This document shows, piece by piece, positions 10,878 to 33,048 of a stretch of DNA of 36,955 nucleotides. Under the pieces are notes generated by a model. It made no database searches. It was not told the origin of the DNA and saw only the letters and a list, made by a program, of their open reading frames with translations. Each line of letters opens with the position of its first letter. Within the stretch, counting starts at the first letter, position 1. Location of the stretch: positions 1 through 36,955 of the IMG/VR virus record IMGVR_UViG_3300014160_000348. The stretch is one strand, 5' to 3'. The DNA comes from a virus. Lineage: Duplodnaviria > Caudoviricetes. The position numbers and the translations under genes are program-made.

Positions 10878-11331
10878 AGGTAAAGCGCTGTAGAGTTGGC
10901 CAGCTTATCTCGGTCAGCCTCGGTGCCCCGTCCCGAACACGGTAGGTGAACAGTTTTTTCCGAGGCGATTCCGGCCAGTGCGCCATTACCTGCTCGACTA
11001 TCGAGGAAATGAAATGCCGCTTTCCAACAACTTCCGCAATGAAAATCGCATCACCGCCGGCGAGCGGCTTGCCCCAGAAAAACACCGGCTCTCTGCGCTC
11101 GGCGTGTCCCCGCAAATCCGCTTCGTCCGCCCACCGCACAAACGCCACTGCCTGGGGCTCTCCCTTTCTGCCAAACACCCCAAAGACGCAATCCGCCAAC
11201 AAATGCCAGGCCACATATCGGAACACCTTGGCAGCCGTCCAGCCGGGGAAACACCGCTGCCCGCGGCGCAGTAGGCAAAACGCGGCCACCTGGGCTACCA
11301 GCTTGGCGGTCTCCTTATTGATCGCAATCAT
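10855..11331 (-). CDS. Acyltransferase-like protein (GNAT/HlyC-TAAT-like fold)
   Basis: Pattern W...GEPQAVAFVRW...GDAIFIAEVVG...WP...R resembles toxin-activating acyltransferases. Lies between nozzle and ejection genes, like T7 gp13. Confidence 0.45.
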   Translation of the reverse strand: MIAINKETAKLVAQVAAFCLLRRGQRCFPGWTAAKVFRYVAWHLLADCVFGVFGRKGEPQAVAFVRWADEADLRGHAERREPVFFWGKPLAGGDAIFIAEVVGKRHFISSIVEQVMAHWPESPRKKLFTYRVRDGAPRLTEISWPTLQRFTYGRTKHS

Positions 11332-11879
11332 CTGAACCTCCGAACAAAGCGCGCCATGCCTACCTCAAGCGGCGACATCCCATAGCCCCTCGCTTCCGCC
11401 AGGGCTCTAGCCCCGCTCCACCCCTGCGCGCGAACCCTGTAACACGCGACAATCGTCCCCGTCCGGTCGCACCCAAACTGGCAGTGAACAAACACCGGCC
11501 CGGGTGACCGCTGGATCTCCCGCAGAATCTCGTCCACCTGGTCGCCCGTCGGCGCGCCAAACCCCGCGAGCGGCGCAGCCACGTACTCGATCCCCGCCTC
11601 CCGGGCCCAGTCGGCCTCAGCCGGCAGCGCGTCGGCCCTCAAATTAATAACCTTGACCACCCCGAGCGCCGCCAGCGCCTGGTACCCGACCTGATTCGGC
11701 TGCGCCCCCCGGTAAACCCGCGCGGTCACCCGGTCAAAATTAGCAATCCCGAACACCGGCGGAAACCCACGGCGCGTGGCACACCCGCACAGCACAACCC
11801 CGAGCGCGAGACAAAGCGCGACGCCCAGCCTCGCGATTCCGGACAACTCATGGCACTCCCGCGCATTCATGTCACTCAT
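11328..11879 (-). CDS. Cys-dependent (PTP/DSP family) phosphatase, probable lipoprotein
   Basis: NFDRV..VYRGAQP, VINLR and active-site HCQFGCDRTG (Cx5R). Hydrophobic LGVALCLALGVVLCG-C lipobox-like segment. Start moved to ATG 11879 (or 11870) to remove the overlap with the upstream gene. Confidence 0.85.
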   Translation of the reverse strand: MSDMNARECHELSGIARLGVALCLALGVVLCGCATRRGFPPVFGIANFDRVTARVYRGAQPNQVGYQALAALGVVKVINLRADALPAEADWAREAGIEYVAAPLAGFGAPTGDQVDEILREIQRSPGPVFVHCQFGCDRTGTIVACYRVRAQGWSGARALAEARGYGMSPLEVGMARFVRRFR

Positions 11880-13527: not shown

Positions 13528-15006
13528 TTACAGGTGCGGCGCGTAGATATCCCAGTTAGGCTCGCCAAAGCCGCTATCCGGCTCGATATGGTTGCGGCTG
13601 GACTGGTGAAACGCCTCCAAGGCAGTCAACTGGGCGAGCAACGCAGCCCCTTCCTGCATGGCCTGCTGTGCCTTTCCGTGCTGCCGTGAGCGCATCAGCA
13701 TGTCGGCTCGCGCGAATGCCATCAGACACGGCTCCGAGTTGTTGATGGGGGAGGCGTCAAAGTCGCCAAGGATGGGGCAGGCAATCTTGCCCAAAACCCG
13801 AAGATTTACCGATGTGTTTGGAAGCGACGTAAGCCGTATCCGCTGATGCTGCGCCAGTTGGCCGGCAGCCGGCGGCATGATGATCGGGGAAAGCACTATC
13901 TGCCAGTACGCCGTGTCGGGTGGTGAGTCATAGTACTGGAACACCGTCACAGTGGGCGATGGCGTCTCGCCCGAGACAGCGTCCCAGATCTGGTTTTCCA
14001 GCCCCGTTGGAGATAGCGCCGGTATTCCCTGGCTGGTGCTTGGATCAGTCATGTAATCTGGGGCGCCACTGGGGTCGACGAGTTGCCACATAGGAGGGCT
14101 GCTGTGTCCGGGCAGATTGAGTCCCGGTGCATAGCTAAACCTCCAGCCACTTGCCGCCTTAAAAGTGCCGTCGGACTGGGGCATATAGATGCCATCCGCA
14201 GCGCCGGTCCCGGTCACGTTTACCGCCGTAATCGTCTTTACAAGCTGGTAAAACGCGCCGTCTCCAGGGTTCTGCACCACGCTCCCTACCGCCAGACCGG
14301 TGTCGTTGACTCCCGCCGCGTACTCTGGAGCAGTCGGAGAGGACGAATAGGAGAAGTTGACCTGCCCCGCGGTTGCCGGCTTGGAGACTGTGTAAACCAG
14401 CATCGCCGGACCGACGAGTGTGCCAGGTGACACCGTGGATGGGTTTGGCGTGACCGTATTGATGGTCACTCCATCCACTGAAAACCGCACTGAGAGTGCG
14501 GCGGTGCTGTCCCCGGCAAGGAAGGCCATCGCGTAAAAGTTTGCCAGCTCGGGTAGTTCCATCACCGCTGGCCGCAACACCTGGAACTCTGTCGGGTCGC
14601 CCTGCATGTCGAGATGGTCTATCACATCCCGGTAATAACTCTCCAGGCTGGCGACACTTATCTGGTGTTTGTCGGTCCTGACCGCCAGCACGGTGTTGAT
14701 AACCGTCGGCAGCAAGAGTGACCCGCGCGCGGGAATCCAATAGGTATCGCCCAGGTTGCAAGTCCCGTCCGTGTTGATCGTGAAAGTGGCTTCGACCAAC
14801 GAGGCGCGCCACAACTGGCTATTCCAGATCATCTCCAGCCGTCGTTGGAGGAACATTTTTGCGGCCGTCACGTCGTCCGTGTCGGACATGCCGGTCTGTT
14901 CACAGATGTGGTTGGCAAGGTCGGTGAGTGTCATTGGGCTAGTGGGTTGTGCGGCCTTAGCGCTGGACAAGGACAGGAGCGCGGCCAGGATGATTGTTCG
15001 AAGCAT
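13528..15006 (-). CDS. Head-tail adaptor (tail tubular A-like) with N-terminal signal-like peptide and inserted domains
   Basis: MTLTDLANHI helix at residue 25, IWNSQLW, and C-terminal helices (CLMAFARADML...). Preceded by MLRTIILAALLSLSSAKA. Confidence 0.65.
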   Translation of the reverse strand: MLRTIILAALLSLSSAKAAQPTSPMTLTDLANHICEQTGMSDTDDVTAAKMFLQRRLEMIWNSQLWRASLVEATFTINTDGTCNLGDTYWIPARGSLLLPTVINTVLAVRTDKHQISVASLESYYRDVIDHLDMQGDPTEFQVLRPAVMELPELANFYAMAFLAGDSTAALSVRFSVDGVTINTVTPNPSTVSPGTLVGPAMLVYTVSKPATAGQVNFSYSSSPTAPEYAAGVNDTGLAVGSVVQNPGDGAFYQLVKTITAVNVTGTGAADGIYMPQSDGTFKAASGWRFSYAPGLNLPGHSSPPMWQLVDPSGAPDYMTDPSTSQGIPALSPTGLENQIWDAVSGETPSPTVTVFQYYDSPPDTAYWQIVLSPIIMPPAAGQLAQHQRIRLTSLPNTSVNLRVLGKIACPILGDFDASPINNSEPCLMAFARADMLMRSRQHGKAQQAMQEGAALLAQLTALEAFHQSSRNHIEPDSGFGEPNWDIYAPHL

Positions 15007-15009
15007 AGG

Positions 15010-16665
15010 TTATTGTGGCGAGACAAGGACATGAATCAAGGGTACTTGGCGTGCCGTTCCACCGCCGTCGTTGACGGCGATGCGGAAACGGTTCGTGGTC
15101 ACGATATTGTCAAAGGCGAGGTTTACGACCGGCGGAGCCCCGCCGCTGGTGAACTCAATCGCGCTGGACGACACGTAATAGAAGGGTGTAGGGGATGGTG
15201 TGCGGAAATACACATCGTAACACCCAGTCCGGATCGTCGTGTTCGTCACCAACTGGATCACATCCGCGTTCAGGCTTGTGAGCGTGCTCATCCAATACAT
15301 CACTGGCGGATGCGTGCTCGAAGGCGTCCCCAACGAAACCGCGTTGCTCTGCCCCAGGGCCGTGGTGTAGTTGGTGTAGATCCTCCAAGAGTTCATGTCC
15401 CCTCCCGCCGACCGCGCATAATAGAGCACGTTGCTGCCGATCTGTGGGCTGGACGGAAGCTGCGTCGTGTTCCCGTAAGCAAAGAGGAACGACACCGGGA
15501 ACGGATTTGTGAAGCCGTAGCCCGTATTGGTGATCGAGTTCGCCGCCAGATTCACGCTGGCTACCGTAAATAAGTTCGGAACTCCCGAGAACTGCACCCG
15601 CGCCTGGCTGTAGAGCGGTAGCGCGTTGCGGTTTGTCATATACGCGTATAGCGCCGCCAAGTTCATGGTGGTGTTGGTGCCTTGCGCCGATGCCCACACA
15701 GGCACCGTGTCCCCGTCGCTGAGCGTCGGAGCCGCGTTGGTCGGATTCGCCGCGTTGGTAAGTGTCAAGCTCACAATCGGGAAATTCGAGTAATACCCCC
15801 AGGCGTTGGTCCACGTGTTGGTGTTGTAGAGCGTCCAGGGCAGGAACTCCTGTGCAAACTCGAACGCCAGCAAGAGGTTTGTTCCCAGGTCCGCCGCGAT
15901 AGCCGACTCCAGGTTTGTCAGCGGCACTTGCCACGGCACGCCGTTAGTATCCCAAAACAGCGTCATCGGCTGGTTATTGGTCTGAGGTCCTGAAAACTGC
16001 CCAACCCACTTGCCCAGAACATATTGATTCGTGCCGCCGGCGTTGTTGGTCGAAGCAAACGTGAGGCACTGAACAGGCACATTAGAAGCCAGGGCATAGA
16101 CCAGGTTGGAGCCCTGCACCCTTCCCAGCACTCCGTTGGTCGGGTCAAAAAACAGAAAAGACCCGTACTGTGGGAGCGTCCGGTAAGGCACGTTGAGGTA
16201 GATGTTGGTGTTGCCGTAAATGGCTGTCTGGCAATCGATGCGGCGAAACATGGTCTGCGTCCCCGTCGGGTCGAGCACAAGGAAGTAATAGCCCGGGTTG
16301 AGGGATGGCACGGCCTGCTGGTCGAGGTAGAAGCCAACACCGATCGTTGCCGTATCGATCAGGTTGTGCAGGTCCGAGGCGTAGATCTGCTGCCCGTCGA
16401 GAAGGGTCGTGTTGCGGATGACTTCGCCAGCGCCGGCGCTGATTGCCAGCAGGCAGGTCAGGAGGGCCACTGCCGTAGCTGGCCAAATCTTCTTGAGCCG
16501 GCTTGCCTTCATGTCCAACTTGCGCTCAAGCTGGCTGGTTCCCATTTGCTGCTCCATCTCCCGAAGCGCGCGCGGCACCGCCCGATCCGCGTCTGTTGGA
16601 TCACCCGCGTTGGTGTTGACCCCCGGCGCCCTGCCGGCCTCCAAAATCTCAGCGATCTTGCTCAT
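15010..16665 (-). CDS. Tail fibre-like protein with signal peptide; probable start at ATG 16512
   Basis: MKASRLKK + hydrophobic core + AGA, then DGQQIYASDLHNLIDTATI (fibre attachment-like). C-terminal ARVQFSG...TGCYDVYF fibre-tip-like module. Confidence 0.65.
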   Translation of the reverse strand: MSKIAEILEAGRAPGVNTNAGDPTDADRAVPRALREMEQQMGTSQLERKLDMKASRLKKIWPATAVALLTCLLAISAGAGEVIRNTTLLDGQQIYASDLHNLIDTATIGVGFYLDQQAVPSLNPGYYFLVLDPTGTQTMFRRIDCQTAIYGNTNIYLNVPYRTLPQYGSFLFFDPTNGVLGRVQGSNLVYALASNVPVQCLTFASTNNAGGTNQYVLGKWVGQFSGPQTNNQPMTLFWDTNGVPWQVPLTNLESAIAADLGTNLLLAFEFAQEFLPWTLYNTNTWTNAWGYYSNFPIVSLTLTNAANPTNAAPTLSDGDTVPVWASAQGTNTTMNLAALYAYMTNRNALPLYSQARVQFSGVPNLFTVASVNLAANSITNTGYGFTNPFPVSFLFAYGNTTQLPSSPQIGSNVLYYARSAGGDMNSWRIYTNYTTALGQSNAVSLGTPSSTHPPVMYWMSTLTSLNADVIQLVTNTTIRTGCYDVYFRTPSPTPFYYVSSSAIEFTSGGAPPVVNLAFDNIVTTNRFRIAVNDGGGTARQVPLIHVLVSPQ

Positions 16666-16707: not shown

Positions 16708-17556
16708 TCAAAACCCCGCGCGTAAACCCAGGAACAAAGAGTCCCTCCACCCCGAGTAAGCCCCGAGATTGGACCACTCCGTCCTTGCATACCCCGTGCT
16801 CAGCTTGAGAGTCGTACCCCCCACGTCGAACTGGCACAAGTCCAGATTGAACCCCGCGCCATAGATCGCCCCGATACTCCCATTCGCGCTTCCCGCCGAC
16901 GAAATAGGCGAGCACGCCCCCGCAATCCCAAATGGTGTGACAGTAAAGTTCGACGCAAAGGCGCTGGTCATCCCCAAATACGTAAGTGGCCGCAAGGACT
17001 GCTTAATGGTGACATTCCCGTTCACCATATTGAATGACCCGAGGTAATCCACCCCCATCCCAATGCCGACGTTCTGAGACACGTCAAAAACAAACAGCGC
17101 GCCGCCGCCAAACTGGCGCCCCTTGGGCGCATTCTCCGCGTAGGTTGCATACGGAGAGACGCTGTAATTAGAAGCCGTCTTGAGCCCGTTCCAAATGGCT
17201 TTGCCGACCAATCCCCAAGACAGTGGCGCATTGGTCGCTGGGGCCAACGCGGCTCCGCTGTTAGTTGCGCTGCCCGGACTCGCTGCGCTATTTGTTTGCG
17301 CAGAGGCGCTCGCCCCCAGAGCCAGCAGTAAGAGGATTACAGGCACCGTGCCTGTCTTGAGCTTTTGAAAGTCCGCCGCGATGGCTTCGCGCTTCTCCCA
17401 AAGTGAATGACCAATGGCTACCAGGACGCCTATCGCGCCGATGGCTTGTGAGAGTTGAGAGCCCGAGAGAATGCCTTGCGTGACGAGCCAGGCGCCAGCC
17501 GCGTTGACTGCGTGGCGGATGATGACTTTGGCGAGTTGAGTTTTTAACCAGTTCAT
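16708..17556 (-). CDS. Holin-like domain fused to a signal peptide and an outer-membrane beta-barrel
   Basis: IIRHAVNAAGAWLVTQG...IGAIGVLVAIGHSLWEK (2 TM), then VILLLLALGASASA|Q, about 8 amphipathic strands and terminal LFLGLRAGF. Start at ATG 17556 or 17595. Confidence 0.65.
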   Translation of the reverse strand: MNWLKTQLAKVIIRHAVNAAGAWLVTQGILSGSQLSQAIGAIGVLVAIGHSLWEKREAIAADFQKLKTGTVPVILLLLALGASASAQTNSAASPGSATNSGAALAPATNAPLSWGLVGKAIWNGLKTASNYSVSPYATYAENAPKGRQFGGGALFVFDVSQNVGIGMGVDYLGSFNMVNGNVTIKQSLRPLTYLGMTSAFASNFTVTPFGIAGACSPISSAGSANGSIGAIYGAGFNLDLCQFDVGGTTLKLSTGYARTEWSNLGAYSGWRDSLFLGLRAGF

Positions 17557-17594
17557 GTGTTTTGTGCGTTGTTGTTGAGACGGTCGATCAGACA

Positions 17595-17885
17595 TCAGTG
17601 TTTGTTGAAGGCCCCGGAGAAGAACGCAGCCGCGGTGCTGACAAGGAACGAGACTATACCCGCCAACAGCACGATCGCGGCCTTGCCTCCTTTGGCGCGT
17701 TCCCGAGCATCCTCCAGGCTGCGGACGCGCGCTTCCGTCGAGGATCGATACTCCGCCCAGGAACGCTCAGCCTTCTCCTGGTTTCCCTCAATGGTCTTTA
17801 GCTGCTCCTCAATCCTGGCAAGCCTGCTCAGGCAGTCGGGGAAGGCCGGGCCGCATTCGTTGGTTGGTCGGTGCTCGTTGTTCAT
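17595..17885 (-). CDS. Small coiled-coil protein with C-terminal TM helix (holin/XhlA-like)
   Basis: RLARIEEQLKTIE...RVRSLE coiled coil followed by AIVLLAGIVSFLVSTAAAFF. Confidence 0.55.
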   Translation of the reverse strand: MNNEHRPTNECGPAFPDCLSRLARIEEQLKTIEGNQEKAERSWAEYRSSTEARVRSLEDARERAKGGKAAIVLLAGIVSFLVSTAAAFFSGAFNKH

Positions 17886-19114
17886 TGGGCGGTCAGTATG
17901 GGAACGTTGTTGCTCATCCAGACGCGCGTGAGGCCAAGGCCGTTGGAGTTCACGATCTTGACGTCGCCCGGTCCCATGCCGTTAGTGGCGGCAGCCAGGC
18001 TCCAGGTATTTGAGTGGTAAAGAAGTCCCCCATCAGCCGCGAGCGGTACCGAAAACCTGGACTCCACGTAGGACGGCCCATGCATCTGAAAAAACTGGCA
18101 CTGAAGCGTCGGCTGGATGGGCACAGCAAAGGTCACGATCCCCGCATTGGTTAAGATCGTAAAATTGGTTGTGGCCTGCCAGGTAATCGGCCCGCTGAGG
18201 TTGGTGCAGGTCTCCATGGCCCACCCGGGCACGAGGTTTGTTGCGGGGGTGTTGATCAGGATGTTGGTCCCGCTGGTTCCCCCAAAAGCCTCAGGGATGC
18301 CTGGAACTGTGGCCCAAAGATTCAGCACGTTCGTGCCGTGGTTGTAGAAGGTGACTGTCTCATTGGTCTGCAACTGCGATTGGAGCAGCCAGCCGCCAGC
18401 CATGTTCACCGGCGGCGCCAGAACGTGGATATAGCTCAGTAGGTCGGACTGATTGACCAGTGACGATCCCTGCATCATCAGGCTCTGGCCATCGAAGGAG
18501 ATGACGTTGCCGTAAAGCTCCGGATGGTCCAGCCCATAGATCGTAACTGAGCCGATCCCAACCGTGGTGTCGCCCACAACAGAGAGCCAGATATTTGACC
18601 AGCAGACAAAGCCGTTGGTGAGCGGAAACCAGCCGTTGGTGCCAGTGTAGCTTCCCCACAGGCTCTCAGTGAGGGTGATATTGGGAAGCATTGGCCCGGC
18701 AGAGACCGATGGTGCTCCAATCCGCCACATGTAAAGCTGCGGGACCACGCCAAAGAAGTTGGAGCCTGACATCGTGAACGCCGAGTTATTGGTCAACAAT
18801 ATCTCGTGCGACGAAAGCACCAGATTGGTTTGCATGGCGCTGACGTACTGCTGCGCCCGCACCCACCCCACCACGCCATTGCTGCACACAACCAGATCCC
18901 CAGCCCCCAATCCCCCGCTACTACTGAGGCTGGTAAGGTTGGTGCCGTTCAGGACGATCCCGTTCACATACAGCGTGCGGAACGGGAAATCGGAGCGCCC
19001 CAGGTCGGCCCATCCTGGGCTCACAGGCCGGAAGATGGGATCCCGCAACACGTTCTCATTTCCGCTGGCCGCCAGAGCCAGAAGGCAAACACATATGGCA
19101 AGAAAATGCTTCAC
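17882..19114 (-). CDS. Secreted tail fibre/spike-like protein
   Basis: Signal peptide MKHFLAICVCLLALAASG. Fibre-like P.....DLG....F..LY motif, beta-rich, and an ETCTNL....W...FFQM module. Confidence 0.55.
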   Translation of the reverse strand: MKHFLAICVCLLALAASGNENVLRDPIFRPVSPGWADLGRSDFPFRTLYVNGIVLNGTNLTSLSSSGGLGAGDLVVCSNGVVGWVRAQQYVSAMQTNLVLSSHEILLTNNSAFTMSGSNFFGVVPQLYMWRIGAPSVSAGPMLPNITLTESLWGSYTGTNGWFPLTNGFVCWSNIWLSVVGDTTVGIGSVTIYGLDHPELYGNVISFDGQSLMMQGSSLVNQSDLLSYIHVLAPPVNMAGGWLLQSQLQTNETVTFYNHGTNVLNLWATVPGIPEAFGGTSGTNILINTPATNLVPGWAMETCTNLSGPITWQATTNFTILTNAGIVTFAVPIQPTLQCQFFQMHGPSYVESRFSVPLAADGGLLYHSNTWSLAAATNGMGPGDVKIVNSNGLGLTRVWMSNNVPILTAQ

Positions 19115-27822: not shown

Positions 27823-28389
27823 TTACAAAGCATCCAAATGCCTATCAACATTGGTTGCGGGGGCCTCGTTGCCCCACACATCCCAGCCCGGCATTGCCTG
27901 GCGCGCGAAGAGCTCGATGCGCGGCACGTCGCCAAGCAACTGCACAAGCCGGTCCCGCGCTTCGTCCGGCTTCCGGCTGTGCTCGCGGACCTGGGCGTTG
28001 ATAATCTGCCGCACCGAATGGCTGACAGGTTTTGGGTGCCCGCGCACGGCGAACAGGCAATCCTCGCTATTCGCCCGGGTCCAGTGCCCCATGCCAAAGT
28101 GCTCCAGCCCTCCGCGCGTAAGCTTGCGCCAGGTAAAACCCTTCATGGTCTTGAGTTGGAAACCCCAGGCACTCACCACTGTCAAAGCCTCCACCGGCAT
28201 CGGCGGTACCCACCACATCGCCAAAAAGCAGTCTCTGGCCGCAACGTCATCGATAAACCCGCGAAGGAGGCATAGTTCCTCAATACTCATCACGGAGTAT
28301 TTGTGGCAGGCCCCGCGCAGGCCGGCGTTGCACGAATCGCGGTACTTCCACGGCGGGTCAGCGTAAATGATGGAGTAGGGCGTTGTCAT
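27823..28389 (-). CDS. MT-A70 family adenine methyltransferase
   Basis: IIYADPPW, WGF, FTWRK, GMGHWTRANSE, HSRKP and IELFAR..GWDVWGNE. Confidence 0.93.
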   Translation of the reverse strand: MTTPYSIIYADPPWKYRDSCNAGLRGACHKYSVMSIEELCLLRGFIDDVAARDCFLAMWWVPPMPVEALTVVSAWGFQLKTMKGFTWRKLTRGGLEHFGMGHWTRANSEDCLFAVRGHPKPVSHSVRQIINAQVREHSRKPDEARDRLVQLLGDVPRIELFARQAMPGWDVWGNEAPATNVDRHLDAL

Positions 28390-28619
28390 TGTTGCACCCC
28401 TCCCACCACGCCCTTGCCGCGGACGATCCGAAAATCATGCCTCTGAATCCAGGCCGCAGCAGCAGCCGTTGAGGCCGTCTGGTTGTTCTGATGCTCCCTC
28501 CCAGCCATCTCAAAGCCACAGGCCCGCATTTGGTACACGAACTTGGTCGATACCTGGAGGGCATTAGCCAGTTCCTTAACGCACAGTTTGTCCGATTGGT
28601 TCAAGCGAACTCCTTCCAT
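28386..28619 (-). CDS. Small HTH DNA-binding protein
   Basis: LCVKELANALQVSTKFVYQMRACGF. Confidence 0.7.
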   Translation of the reverse strand: MEGVRLNQSDKLCVKELANALQVSTKFVYQMRACGFEMAGREHQNNQTASTAAAAAWIQRHDFRIVRGKGVVGGVQQ

Positions 28620-29368
28620 ATCTGCTCAGCATACTGAGCCGGGGTTGTCCGGACCCGTCCCTCCCTTATTGCCGATTCTACTTCGGCAACCGCCCGCTCC
28701 GCCTTGCCGCATTCCTCCTTGCATCGGTTCACCCATTTTCCCGCGTCGTTGAGCCACTGGGCTGCGAGGGCGTTCTCAAACCGCTCCACAGCCTCACGTA
28801 CGCGCGGCGGCAGCTTTTTCGCCTTGGTCGCCTCACCCGCCTTGATCGCCCAGGAATCGCTCAGAGCTTGGTCGCCTTTCTCGCCATTGGCCTTTCTCGC
28901 GTCCCCATGGTCGGGCGCCAGTCCCGGTACCGGATGTCCTTCCGACAAAGGTTCAAAGCTTTGTCGCTTATCCCTTATAAGACTTAAGGGGGTTGTGACG
29001 CCAGCCGCACCGGGAGGCGCACAAGCACCGCACGCCCGCGAGCGCTGCATGCGTAACTTGTTGGCGTTGCGCTCCCTAGCCTCCCTTTGCATCCGGCGAT
29101 TAGTGAGCGACACAACGCCGTCACGCTCCGTAACATTGGCGGTATTTGTGGTCTTGAGTTCATCCAGTGCGTGGGCAAGTTCGACAGCTGAGCAACGGCC
29201 AAGTCGGGCGAGTTGTTCGCGCGACCCGGCGATAACACCACAGCGATCCAGCTTGTGCATAGCGCACAGGAGGTCCACCCAGATACCGCGAGTCGCCGCC
29301 GAACAGATCGACAGCGCCGGATCGGATAGCCACTCATCAACCGCAAAATCCATGCAGGGATACTTCAC
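28601..29368 (-). CDS. Phage replication initiator (DUF1376/YdaU-like N-terminus)
   Basis: YPCMDFAVDEWLSD...RGIWVDLLCAMH...NRRMQRE. Confidence 0.75.
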   Translation of the reverse strand: MKYPCMDFAVDEWLSDPALSICSAATRGIWVDLLCAMHKLDRCGVIAGSREQLARLGRCSAVELAHALDELKTTNTANVTERDGVVSLTNRRMQREARERNANKLRMQRSRACGACAPPGAAGVTTPLSLIRDKRQSFEPLSEGHPVPGLAPDHGDARKANGEKGDQALSDSWAIKAGEATKAKKLPPRVREAVERFENALAAQWLNDAGKWVNRCKEECGKAERAVAEVESAIREGRVRTTPAQYAEQIWKEFA

Positions 29369-29371
29369 AGG

Positions 29372-30070
29372 TCACCTGCCGAGAAGCCTGGCCAGGTTAG
29401 TCTTTCTGCGGATCTCAATTCTGGCCGCGCCCAAGGCGCCGATCAGGTCCCGCACCTTATCCGGGCTTGGCTCCGGAAGCCCAGCGCCCTTGCTATCCGC
29501 GCCGATGTTTACAAACTCCGGGCGAATTAACGCGATGGCCGCAACGAGCCGGTCAACGTCAAAGTCAAGAATCGGTTCGATGGTCACGAATCGACGCAGA
29601 GCGCTGGGCAGGCTAACCATGCCAGCCACACGCTCAGTTGGCGCTGGCGCATCCCGCATAACCTCGGGAAAGTGCCGATTGCTCTCGATGGTGGTTCCGA
29701 CTAAAGCAGTCGAGGGCAGGTCGCCAACGAAGTGAGGCAATCTAGAGGGGTTTTTGCTTTGGAACACGTAGGCGTTGTCGGGGTACTGCCTACAGTGGTC
29801 CAGGATGCACCCGATCCACTCCTTGTTGATCGCCGAGGCAAACAGGTCTCCCATGTGCTCAACGAAGATGGTCTTTCCCGAGCCGTAGCACACGTGCAAC
29901 TCATCCGCCACGAGGCGCGGAGGCCCCGCATAGTGCAGCCTCATGCTAGCAAACCTCCGCGCCATCGCCTGCACGTAGCAATACGAGCAGCGGTGCGGAC
30001 ACTCACCCTCCAGGTGCGCATGTGTGTGCGTGACCCAGGGGTACATATTACCGGCGGATTTTTTCAACAT
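29372..30070 (-). CDS. Radical SAM-like protein (DUF5131/Gp37Gp68-like)
   Basis: CPHRCSYCY (CxxxCxxC), IFVEHMGDLF, SKNP, GTTIES and TIEPIL. Confidence 0.85.
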   Translation of the reverse strand: MLKKSAGNMYPWVTHTHAHLEGECPHRCSYCYVQAMARRFASMRLHYAGPPRLVADELHVCYGSGKTIFVEHMGDLFASAINKEWIGCILDHCRQYPDNAYVFQSKNPSRLPHFVGDLPSTALVGTTIESNRHFPEVMRDAPAPTERVAGMVSLPSALRRFVTIEPILDFDVDRLVAAIALIRPEFVNIGADSKGAGLPEPSPDKVRDLIGALGAARIEIRRKTNLARLLGR

Positions 30071-30360
30071 AGATCCCTTTCCACCCGACTCCCGACGCCC
30101 ACGCTCCCGGCAAGGGCCATCTTCGCGTTTTGGTGGACCGGGAGCGTTGGCAAAAGCTGGCGCAGCCGGCTATTGGCCGACCACTGCGGAAGAGGCTCAG
30201 CGCTGACAGACACAACGAGCCCGGTCAGACAGTTCCAAACGACGACGTCCCAAAGCTGCTCTGGCCGTGAGGCAGCGACTTCAGTCCCCTCCGGCGAATC
30301 GGCCGCCGACCGCAGCCTGTCAAACGCAAACGGGAATGCTCCGCGCCGCGACCGCATCAA
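30064..30360 (-). CDS. Hypothetical protein
   Basis: 98-aa ORF filling the gap with short overlaps on both sides; no motif recognised. Confidence 0.45.
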   Translation of the reverse strand: MMRSRRGAFPFAFDRLRSAADSPEGTEVAASRPEQLWDVVVWNCLTGLVVSVSAEPLPQWSANSRLRQLLPTLPVHQNAKMALAGSVGVGSRVERDLC

Positions 30361-31961
30361 CCCACCTCCTCTTCTGCCTGCTTCTGGATACTCAGAAGAT
30401 CAACCCCCGCCAGCCTGGCAAGCTGCGTCCATCGATCCTCATTCCACGGATGCGCGCAGCAGAGCAGTTCTACAGCTATCCCTACGAAGTCCGCAGGGGT
30501 GCGGCTCTCGTCCCCCAGCCAAGCCTCCAGTGCCGGCCGCGCCTCGTTCTGCGACCTGGCCAGCCCGCGCCGCTTGGCAACTTCGGAATGCTTCGCAATG
30601 TCGGTGTACTGGTAGGCGTTCCATGCCAGGAAGCGCCAAACCTCCGCCTTCACCGTCCCAAGGTCCTGCATGACAGTCCTGGCAAGAATGGCCTCCGTAA
30701 CCTTCCACTCATACAGCCGCTGGATCTTCTGCTCCCGCAGCTGCGCCTTCCGATCCTCCTTTGGCTCCTCGGCCTCCGCCGGCAGTTTCCCAAGCTCCTT
30801 CAACACCGCCACCGCGTCCGCGCGCCGAATGAGCTCGTGGACGCCCCCATTCGCGTCCACCGCCAGAACAGTCTCGGGCATCTGCTTCCCGAGGGATTTC
30901 CTCCAGGACTTCCCAACCCCAGCCGCCCAATCGTCAGCATCAACCAGGCTGCGATCTTGCGGGCGGCCACACTCATCGTAAGCCCCCTCAATGACTGTTT
31001 TTCCTTTAGCCTTGGCCTTCGCAATAACCTCAGCGGCGTGGGCCTTGCGCTTGGCCTCAAAGCACGTGGGATTCGTGCAGACGTCTGCACTCTCGATGTC
31101 CGCAAAAAGCTCTTTTTGGTTCCCGGTCCGGTGCGGGCAGGCCGCGCAGGCCCCGGCCTCCGGCACAAGCTTCGCGTCCTTCGTGTTGAACGGCGCTTCC
31201 CTCAGCCGCAGCATGAAACAGCGCTGAATCTCAGCCGCAGCCGTGCGGTAGGCCGCCGGCTCGCCCTCGCAGTCAATGCATCGCTCGAGCGCCTGCACCT
31301 GCAGATCGGGGGCTGGAATGCGCGCCACGAGCAGCGCCAGGCTGGGCGTAAGTCTGCCCTCCACCAACGCCGTTCGCGCCTCAGGGCAAAGCGCCGTGAG
31401 CTTCATCCGCGCATAGACGTAGGCCTTGGACTTCCCCACCTTCGCAGCAATGTCATCGGCCGCGTAGCCGTGCTTGGCCATCAGCAGCTCGTAACCCTCC
31501 GCCTCCTCCATCGGTTGCAGGTCCGCCCGCTGCAAATTCTCCACCACAGCAACCTCTAGCGCCTCCTTGTCCGTGAAATCGCGCACCACGGCCGGTATCT
31601 CTGACAACCCAGCCTCTTTGGACGCGCGCCAGCGCCGCTCTCCGCTCACGATCTCGAACTCCGGCAAGTGCGCCTCAGCCTCCTCGCGCGTCGCGAACTG
31701 CTCCGGTTCCGGACCGGTGTAGCGGCCGCCGCGGGTAAGCCCCCGGTCGAGCACCTGGTAGAACCTGGTCTTCTTCCGTCCGTGGCTGGTGACCTGATCC
31801 ACCAACCAGTCGCCGCCGCGCAGCGGACGCACCAGGATAGGCTGGAGGATGCCGTGAGCCTTCACACTGGCGGCCAGGTCGGCCAGCGCGTCCGCGGCAA
31901 AGTGCTTTCGCGGGTTTGTTTGGGAAGGGACAATCTTTGAGACAGGGATATCCGTAATCAT
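30357..31961 (-). CDS. parB: ParB/Spo0J-family protein
   Basis: NPRKHF, GILQPILVRP, IVSGERRWRAS, ENLQRADL, HTH (IAAKVGKS), then a CAACP...CTNPTCF Cys cluster. Confidence 0.92.
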   Translation of the reverse strand: MITDIPVSKIVPSQTNPRKHFAADALADLAASVKAHGILQPILVRPLRGGDWLVDQVTSHGRKKTRFYQVLDRGLTRGGRYTGPEPEQFATREEAEAHLPEFEIVSGERRWRASKEAGLSEIPAVVRDFTDKEALEVAVVENLQRADLQPMEEAEGYELLMAKHGYAADDIAAKVGKSKAYVYARMKLTALCPEARTALVEGRLTPSLALLVARIPAPDLQVQALERCIDCEGEPAAYRTAAAEIQRCFMLRLREAPFNTKDAKLVPEAGACAACPHRTGNQKELFADIESADVCTNPTCFEAKRKAHAAEVIAKAKAKGKTVIEGAYDECGRPQDRSLVDADDWAAGVGKSWRKSLGKQMPETVLAVDANGGVHELIRRADAVAVLKELGKLPAEAEEPKEDRKAQLREQKIQRLYEWKVTEAILARTVMQDLGTVKAEVWRFLAWNAYQYTDIAKHSEVAKRRGLARSQNEARPALEAWLGDESRTPADFVGIAVELLCCAHPWNEDRWTQLARLAGVDLLSIQKQAEEEVG

Positions 31962-32132
31962 AATCAGTTACCTAACACGCCGCTGTGGGTTTGGTTTATT
32001 TGGACGAGCCAGGGGGCGGCAGCCCTAGCCCGGCCATGAAACTACTTTGAGCCGTCCAACCTGATTCTGATGCATGCTGCGTCCTGAAAGGCAATTCCTC
32101 GCGCACCGTAAGAACGCTATCCTGCAGGACGA

Positions 32133-33002
32133 TCATGATCGGTTTAGAATTTCAGCAATCCAGTTCGCCATAGGGGGGGGGAATGCGTTCCCTGCGGCAT
32201 AAGCCTCTTCAAGGTTGGTCGCATCCAGTCCGCAGCGAAGCCCATGTACCTCAACCTCTCGGGCCCGCTCAACCATCGAACCCCATCCGTCTTCCTCAGC
32301 AACGAAAAGTTCACTGCCCAAATTGATCCGGCTGGAGCATCGGTTAAACTTGTTTGGAGCCGTAAGAGTATAGCCAGCCCAAGAATCCGCTTGTTTTGCG
32401 ATCCAGTTCGAGCCAGGCGATGCAGGTAGCGATTCCACTGGCCTGGCGTCAGATAGAAACTCGGAGCTTGGGTATCGTCCAAGACCCGCGACCAGGAGAA
32501 GGCGGCGGCGCTTTTGGGGGATTCCGAAATATTGAGAGTCAAGCACTCGCCAGAATCCCACATACCCGCATTTGGATAATTCTGCGATGACTGCCTGAAA
32601 GTCTCGGCAATCGTTGATATAGAGCAGGGCCGGCACGTTTTCAACGACCACCCAAGCGGGTTTAAGTGCGGCGACGCACGCCATGATTTCAAAGAAGAGT
32701 CCGCTGCGCTCGCCAGCAAGACCTCGTTTCGACTGGTCTCGCTTAGCCGTCGCCATGTTAGAAATGTCCTGGCAGGGGAAGCCGAAGGCGACGCAGCCAA
32801 CTGGGGACAAGGCAAATGAGCGCCAGTCGCGGAGATCACGGTGTTGCCGGGCCTGAGGAAAGAGATCGGCAAGGACAGTCCGGTTGACGTCGTCCAGTTC
32901 AATCTGCCAGGTTGTTTTCCATCCGGCTTCCTCGAAACCTTTGTCGAAGCCACCAATCCCAGCGCAGATTGTTCCGAGCGTTCTGTTGCTGGTCTCATTC
33001 AC
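32133..33002 (-). CDS. DNA cytosine-5 methyltransferase, alpha polypeptide (motifs I-VIII and X)
   Basis: CAGIGG, GFPCQD, ENVP, PQKRRR and GNAFPPP; motif IX is missing from this frame. Likely GTG start at 33002 after GGGGGAG (ATG 33047 is an alternative). Confidence 0.9.
   Translation of the reverse strand: MNETSNRTLGTICAGIGGFDKGFEEAGWKTTWQIELDDVNRTVLADLFPQARQHRDLRDWRSFALSPVGCVAFGFPCQDISNMATAKRDQSKRGLAGERSGLFFEIMACVAALKPAWVVVENVPALLYINDCRDFQAVIAELSKCGYVGFWRVLDSQYFGIPQKRRRLLLVAGLGRYPSSEFLSDARPVESLPASPGSNWIAKQADSWAGYTLTAPNKFNRCSSRINLGSELFVAEEDGWGSMVERAREVEVHGLRCGLDATNLEEAYAAGNAFPPPMANWIAEILNRS
32144..32998 (-). CDS. C5 methyltransferase beta polypeptide in an overlapping frame (motif IX)
   Basis: 284-codon nested same-strand ORF carrying VRWLSGPERLRYMGFAADW; true start uncertain. 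Confidence 0.75.
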   Translation of the reverse strand: MRPATERSEQSALGLVASTKVSRKPDGKQPGRLNWTTSTGLSLPISFLRPGNTVISATGAHLPCPQLAASPSASPARTFLTWRRLSETSRNEVLLASAADSSLKSWRASPHLNPLGWSLKTCRPCSISTIAETFRQSSQNYPNAGMWDSGECLTLNISESPKSAAAFSWSRVLDDTQAPSFYLTPGQWNRYLHRLARTGSQNKRILGLAILLRLQTSLTDAPAGSIWAVNFSLLRKTDGVRWLSGPERLRYMGFAADWMRPTLKRLMPQGTHSPPLWRTGLLKF

Positions 33003-33048
33003 TTCTCCCCCTTTCCATCCAACATGGCCTGATGCATCCAAGTCCATC

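Follow-up and report, generated by a model that had tools for sequence, protein, structure and literature searches.

FbcH of Bradyrhizobium japonicum is the product of one gene for cytochromes b and c1, in which a polytopic part is followed by an internal signal and the second product is released by processing. Signal peptidase I (SPase I) cleavage and folding of outer-membrane proteins (OMPs) by BAM are an established pathway. On the phage side, Pam3 gp28 gives its name to a family of 'putative' holins (PF23987), for which no paper testing holin activity was found in the literature searched. The spanins, such as lambda Rz/Rz1 and T1 gp11, resemble the gene described here in being part of a holin-linked cassette and in carrying signals for both membranes, and a spanin survey (PMC6139136) reports that about 13% of phages have no recognisable spanin or means of outer-membrane disruption, and raises an OMP acting as o-spanin as a possibility. 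Phage OMPs have been surveyed in a preprint (10.64898/2026.10.24.761521) restricted to OMPs with N-terminal signals, a requirement by which internal-signal fusions would be missed; the words 'holin' and 'fusion' do not occur in its main text, and its supplements might list fusions. No holin-signal-barrel fusion was found in the titles and abstract openings of the papers searched.

The gene under study lies in a stretch of 36,955 bases (the window), which is a provirus record with an estimated completeness of 88% and with matches to integrase, portal and major capsid proteins; its DNA occurs in sequencing runs from wetland metagenomes. The gene (16708..17556, minus strand), found between a capsid block and tail-like genes, encodes 282 amino acids from its likely start, and is a fusion of parts that are known, its barrel being from a phage family that has no name. 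Our main reading, to which we would give a probability of roughly 45%, is that the fusion arose by stop loss, that SPase I cleaves its product after Ala86 and that the freed barrel would be that component of a lysis cassette which works at the outer membrane. With FbcH it would share a polytopic inner-membrane part, an internal signal and a processed second product; FbcH, however, belongs to a host respiratory complex with both products in the inner membrane, whereas here a phage gene is predicted to serve two membranes. Such a design, in which two products are sorted to two membranes by one predicted SPase cut, was not found in the literature searched.

The first-pass annotation had described a holin-like domain, an internal signal peptide and an outer-membrane barrel in a single reading frame. 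This is confirmed by one uninterrupted open frame from 17595 to 16708 (minus strand), a PF23987 match, the signal profile at ASA|QTN and the barrel model. Its start at 17595 is disfavoured in favour of Met14 of that frame, at 17556, because four observations agree: the database form of the protein (282 amino acids) begins at Met14, its relative P0003 (locus L002) begins at the equivalent Met, the stretch of DNA similarity with P0003 begins at the Met14 codon, and the leader before 17556 is A-rich and G-poor, as in stand-alone genes of the family. The 13 extra codons of the longer form resemble an A/C-rich leader. Residues are numbered from Met14 throughout. As to a missed stop or an assembly error, the contigs of three of four runs, which are possibly the source of the window itself, span 16729-18200 with no other letter and no gap, and a second phage carries the same fusion (P0003); an assembly error is thus ruled out and the fusion stands.

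Residues 11-56 (17389..17526, minus strand) match PF23987 with an E value of 5.1e-10 and 39.7 bits (gathering cut-off, 27), and form a helical hairpin in the full-length model (pLDDT 64-79), with basic residues on both sides and none within the loop. The '2-TM holin-like N-terminus' of the first description is upheld as to family and modelled hairpin and weakened as to helix 1, the hydrophobicity of which is low (19-residue KD of about 0.8), so that the assignment of two transmembrane helices rests on the family match, the model and the distribution of charges. The stand-alone members of the Pam3 gp28 family also sit in barrel cassettes; the window gene differs from them in continuing in frame into a signal and a barrel, and in a third helix that would be kept after the predicted cleavage. 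No match was found for the fused ORF in PHROGs or for the fused protein among GenBank phages. A word-index search with the holin part alone, which is insensitive and missed P0003, returned only the protein itself among its 48 candidates and none of six shorter proteins. Directly upstream (17595..17885, minus strand) lies a 96-amino acid gene for a coiled coil with one C-terminal membrane segment, with a weak match to the PHROG holin family phrog_689 (E 1.6e-4), which is likely a second membrane gene of the cassette.

The hairpin is followed by a charged linker (17350..17388, minus strand), presumably cytoplasmic, of which Lys65 and Lys67 may form the n-region of the internal signal. The h- and c-regions of this Sec/SPase I-type signal occupy 17299..17349 (minus strand), with a predicted cut between Ala86 and Gln87 (17299|17298). 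On a profile built from the signal peptides of 73 stand-alone family members, ASA|QTN scores 22.4, against 3.1 for the runner-up anywhere in the protein, which bears out the third hydrophobic segment ending in ASA|Q that had been noticed earlier; the stand-alone signals themselves, scored in-sample, have a median of 27.1 and a 10th percentile of 21.9. Gln87 aligns with the cleavage sites of stand-alone barrel proteins. In L002 the linker is longer by 50 residues, in frame, carrying a palindromic repeat and a short direct repeat, and the linker and signal region forms a stretch of 37% identity between the two phages in which ASAQTN is unchanged. The top-scoring cleavage site is found just ahead of the barrel in all 12 fusions of the family, with scores of 17-30 in 11 and of 8.2 in P0083. 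A signal with n-, h- and c-regions and an A-x-A site is, therefore, present behind a polytopic part. SPase I probably cuts after Ala86, which would yield an 86-residue inner-membrane piece with three helices and a 196-residue piece to be folded by BAM. Of the two fates proposed at first for the protein, the precursor split by SPase I fits all of the evidence, with cleavage itself a prediction.

Beyond the cut, the models place a disordered spacer of 27 residues made of Ser, Ala, Thr and Asn (17218..17298), an amphipathic helix ahead of strand 1 (17176..17217), presumably along the outer membrane on its periplasmic side, and a predicted outer-membrane beta-barrel of eight strands (16711..17166, supported also by fold matches and dN/dS), which has short outer loops, contains a helical periplasmic turn (16945-16998) and ends in a C-terminal Phe (16711-16713; all on the minus strand). 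In the full-length model, hairpin, third helix, disordered spacer, amphipathic helix and barrel follow each other in this order. The earlier estimate of about eight strands and a terminal Phe holds, since AlphaFold2, with an alignment of 138 rows, models eight strands at a mean pLDDT of 90.2 in an OprF/OmpA fold; faces alternate in 8/8 strands family-wide. The best PDB hits in Foldseek are OmpA, NspA, OmpW and OprF, a structural aligner gives Z 17.4 for OprF (4rlc; rmsd 2.3, 122 aligned residues) and Z 16.9 for OmpA (3nb3), and the matches in BFVD are phage-encoded. The fold and the terminal Phe are thus common to the OprF/OmpA N-domain, OmpW, NspA, PagL, lambda Lom and the OMPs of huge phages, the latter two being phage-encoded like the window barrel; what distinguishes it from the known eight-stranded OMPs is an identity of 9-21% to the fold matches, the extra amphipathic helices and the internal position of the signal peptide. 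Both marks of the class, the C-terminal Phe and a Sec signal, are present. No Pfam barrel family (Ail/Lom, OmpA_membrane and OMP_b-brl included) matches the window protein above cut-off; its relatives match OmpA_membrane and OMP_b-brl below cut-off only, and NCBIfam OmpA gives 20.4 bits against 277. Features from the ESM Atlas fall into various porin clusters, with recognition below the useful mark.

P0003 is 67% identical to the window protein and has the same order of parts. At dS values of 0.7-1.6 between the two genes, the hairpin has a dN/dS of 0.10 and the helix and barrel together one of 0.07; about 0.1 in both halves, this indicates purifying selection on each, and the fusion is real and old. 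A barrel search among representatives at 50% identity gave 156 relatives, 150 of them listed, and the family has no name. Among the matches listed, 123 of the 151 family proteins are of 226 amino acids or fewer, mostly a plain signal peptide and barrel, and 110, fragments included, have a C-terminal Phe. The fusions, called by eye where additional membrane modules precede an internal signal, number 12 (the borderline P0147 is not counted). Their N-terminal modules differ, being PF23987-like in P0104 and P0060, holin-like (phrog_1129) in P0083 and unnamed in the others, and even the sister barrels P0024 and P0027 carry different ones. On a quick tree of 137 rows the 12 fused rows need 10 changes, at least six of which are forced by well-supported branches, and 29 of 500 shuffles are equally clustered. 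Eight of the 10 fusions other than the window's and P0003 are known from one contig each, so that some may be frameshift errors in overlapped gene pairs. The fusion does, then, recur, in P0003 and in fusions scattered on the quick tree with differing partners, and repeated origin by stop loss between neighbours appears to be the best reading. P0011 and P0088 look like three-part precursors, with a signal peptide at the N-terminus, a membrane module, a second internal signal and the barrel.

Gene neighbourhoods were compared in loci fetched by motif (98, of which 29 without a barrel were dropped, the remaining 69 giving 52 and then 44 groups at 90% identity). In related phages the barrel mostly has a gene to itself, next to genes for holin-like proteins and small hydrolases. 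L039 contains an exact split pair, in which the stop of a stand-alone PF23987 holin (E 1.5e-15) overlaps the start of the barrel as ATGA, and in L100 a holin like the N-terminal module of the fusion P0083 (E 1.8e-7) lies directly upstream of the barrel; neighbours overlapped in this way become fused in one step on stop loss. Among 26 distinct barrel loci with at least 1.5 kb downstream (the window's own phage included), a YiiX-like permuted papain (identified through PDB 2if6, E 1.1e-4) occurs within 2 kb in 12 and a DUF1353 gene within 2 kb in seven, never together, and 21 have a YiiX-like gene, a DUF1353 gene or a recurrent holin-like/TM gene. Among the surroundings in which the barrel occurs are podo-like tails, T4-like neck genes and terminases. 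It is possible that the YiiX-like and DUF1353 products are interchangeable non-canonical endolysins or lipid-acting enzymes. As to the slot after the barrel, the contrast between YiiX-like and DUF1353 genes sets L006, L009, L010, L013, L015, L017, L020, L026, L031, L032, L049, L061, L065 and L087 against L034, L036, L042, L047, L057, L059, L072 and L080; this slot holds a class 3 lipase in L044, and a papain C1 peptidase is found near it in L072.

Lipoproteins were also sought. No ORF with a lipobox was found within 2.2 kb downstream in any of 11 barrel-hydrolase-holin cassettes by a screen that caught two of three positive controls; nine of these cassettes have a terminase gene in the locus, and several are close relatives and thus not independent. 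An earlier screen, with 6/25 loci positive against 4/25 on the opposite strand and one known case missed, was set aside. The only lipobox on the coding strand of the window belongs to a phosphatase. In a syntenic prophage that lacks the barrel, the matching slot is taken by a 2-TM gene, two lipoproteins and a papain peptidase.

The main reading would proceed as follows. Two adjacent late genes would lose the stop that separates them, which would place a holin-like hairpin, an export signal and a barrel in one frame. The basic residues that flank the hairpin, with none in its loop, suggest that both of its ends are cytoplasmic and that the third helix would run from inside to outside as an ordinary signal peptide does. 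SPase I would then cut at ASA|Q, BAM would fold the released piece through its terminal Phe strand, and the barrel may act on the outer membrane at lysis, perhaps via its amphipathic helices in the periplasm, with the holin and a small hydrolase as partners. The fusion would be tolerated, as its two products likely come apart through signal peptidase I; a retained signal would make it harmless, which would account for its repeated origins with different partners. It is probably a tolerated compaction of genes that fixes a 1:1 ratio and creates no new trans-envelope machine. For the barrel itself, a role in the outer-membrane step of lysis has close to an even chance. The more specific proposal that the family is an OMP-type lysis factor (an 'OMP as o-spanin') of Verrucomicrobiota phages, within a three-layer cassette of barrel, papain-like or DUF1353 wall hydrolase and holin, and that one gene here supplies both membranes through SPase I, is more speculative and on balance doubtful. 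A barrel family in holin cassettes lacking lipoproteins is a concrete, clonable candidate for the spanin-less gap.

Eight-stranded barrels usually have no large pore, and the best-known phage one, Lom, blocks a receptor, both of which speak against a lysis role. Genes that block receptors, T1 cor and lambda bor for example, are located within or beside lysis cassettes. An alternative is that the precursor is cleaved in the same way and that its barrel is an accessory protein of the Lom type, expressed late or in the lysogen, which binds or masks the phage receptor, so as to cause superinfection exclusion or to protect progeny from debris, with adjacency to the holin reflecting timing only. The eight-stranded fold class is that of Lom, OmpX and Ail, and Lom, according to a second-hand account in the preprint on phage OMPs (10.64898/2026.10.24.761521), binds LamB and blocks adsorption. 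Nor is a known endolysin recognised nearby, either by a Pfam search with 55 ORF translations of the window, a record 88% complete, or in 91 neighbour ORFs of other barrel loci. In three loci (L039 1955-2294, L060 2142-2649 and L100 2579-2918), moreover, the barrel is followed by an overlapped small TM/helical gene and a lipoprotein gene; the pair, a 60-70-amino acid N-terminally hydrophobic protein and a lipoprotein, resembles a two-component spanin, has no family match in Pfam or PHROG and is a candidate new family of such spanins, and the barrel would therefore not be needed there as a spanin substitute. A Lom-like accessory is, however, rather unlikely in the light of the tight coupling to holin-like genes, through overlapping starts and repeated fusions, in podo-like, T4-like and terminase-linked phages, of the absence of any other outer-membrane-targeted gene in 11/11 cassettes screened, of the very short outer loops and of the lack of an Ail/Lom Pfam match among 150 family proteins. 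If it were one, the barrel would still represent a new family of phage OMPs.

An improbable alternative is that the barrel serves the export, anchoring or assembly of the signal-bearing Thr/Asn-rich surface proteins of the phage, the hairpin being a targeting or membrane-scaffold module and no holin. It draws on signal-like segments in all three flanking genes (17882-19114, 15010-16665 and 13528-15006), on similar exported proteins beside the barrel in L005, L009, L017, L024 and L039, and on the putative status of holin activity in PF23987. An eight-stranded barrel, however, is too narrow for protein export, cassettes linked to terminases have the barrel without exported neighbours, and the hairpin is under purifying selection as strong as the barrel's.

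Even less probable is a nested internal start ahead of the signal, from which the barrel would be made and which would leave the read-through product of little importance. Starts of this kind may exist elsewhere in the family, as in P0020 (L032) an ATG preceded by the usual A-rich leader stands immediately ahead of the signal, and P0027 and P0075 likewise carry a Met before theirs; in the window and in L002 there is no ATG ahead of the internal signal, and what is found is an in-frame GTG at the beginning of the hydrophobic stretch. A signal started there would lack a basic n-region, while Lys/Arg is present in 69 of the 73 signals of stand-alone proteins; the leaders of stand-alone starts (42 rows, only ATG considered) are A-rich and G-poor, with a median G of 0.07 against 0.27 and 0.40 for the GTGs; and in neither phage does the holin part end in a stop.

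The periplasm is about 20 nm wide. The uncleaved spanin analogue put forward in the first-pass annotation, in which a holin-like inner anchor and a barrel outer anchor would let the chain pull the membranes together, is very improbable in spite of anchors for two membranes on one chain, of amphipathic helices close to the barrel and of the lack of another spanin candidate in the window by the lipobox screens: the 44 residues between the cleavage site at helix 3 and strand 1 (27 extended, 14 in the amphipathic helix; family median 33 in 104 rows measured) are too few to cross it with the wall intact, most relatives are a plain signal and barrel with no inner-membrane anchor, the cleavage motif is conserved in a linker region of low identity, and the defining features of u-spanins are absent, there being no T1 gp11-type lipobox Cys in the fused ORF, no long periplasmic domain and, at the modelled C-terminus, a beta strand in place of the T1 gp11-type transmembrane helix, so that the outer anchor is a barrel on a protein that is likely cleaved.

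The host of the window phage is likely of the Verrucomicrobiota, because the sole credible named genome with the barrel is a metagenome-assembled genome of this phylum (L087; 16 motif hits), a second strong barrel match comes from the same order, and the prophage syntenic with the window comes from the same phylum. Within one order, just 2 of the 401 genomes have a strong barrel match (eight candidates scored per genome), which points to a phage-borne family and not to a core host gene. A capsid search in 401 genomes of the same phylum gave two hits, with the barrel in neither. L096, the record of which is labelled Bifidobacteriaceae, has the barrel of L047; it was treated as likely mis-binned and left out of the host range.

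A conserved non-coding element is found upstream of stand-alone barrel genes (L025 330-625, L036 2270-2580, L033, L034, L043, L050, L059, L065 and L026). It consists of two palindromic TGT-N9-ACA boxes with compensatory changes, an extended -10-like box and a leader of 100-200 nt, has no real match in Rfam in the four loci compared, and has the appearance of a regulated late promoter whose first gene is the barrel.

Other genes of the window also deserve mention. The gene adjoining the holin-barrel fusion (15010-16665, minus strand; 551 amino acids), in which a small soluble ORF runs on into an internal signal peptide and a long body rich in Thr and Asn, is by its arrangement a second read-through fusion: the small ORF stands by itself in L002 (7042-7263) and has a match in L107, again as an independent ORF, of 89 amino acids (E 3.5e-7). 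An in-frame Met just ahead of its signal could also act as a start. In the structural region, 13528-15006 and 17882-19114 (minus strand) have clear signal-peptide-like N-terminal segments; the L002 homolog of the former starts 24 codons later, without such a segment. A cluster at 27823-33047 (minus strand) with an MT-A70 adenine methyltransferase, DUF5131, a ParB-like protein and a C-5 cytosine methylase is ordinary for temperate phages. In the tail region, 11328-11870 (minus strand) encodes a dual-specificity/tyrosine phosphatase with a lipobox, a predicted lipoprotein, homologs of which are encoded close to the barrel in L040 (E 3e-41) and, in L100, immediately behind it (E 5e-22).
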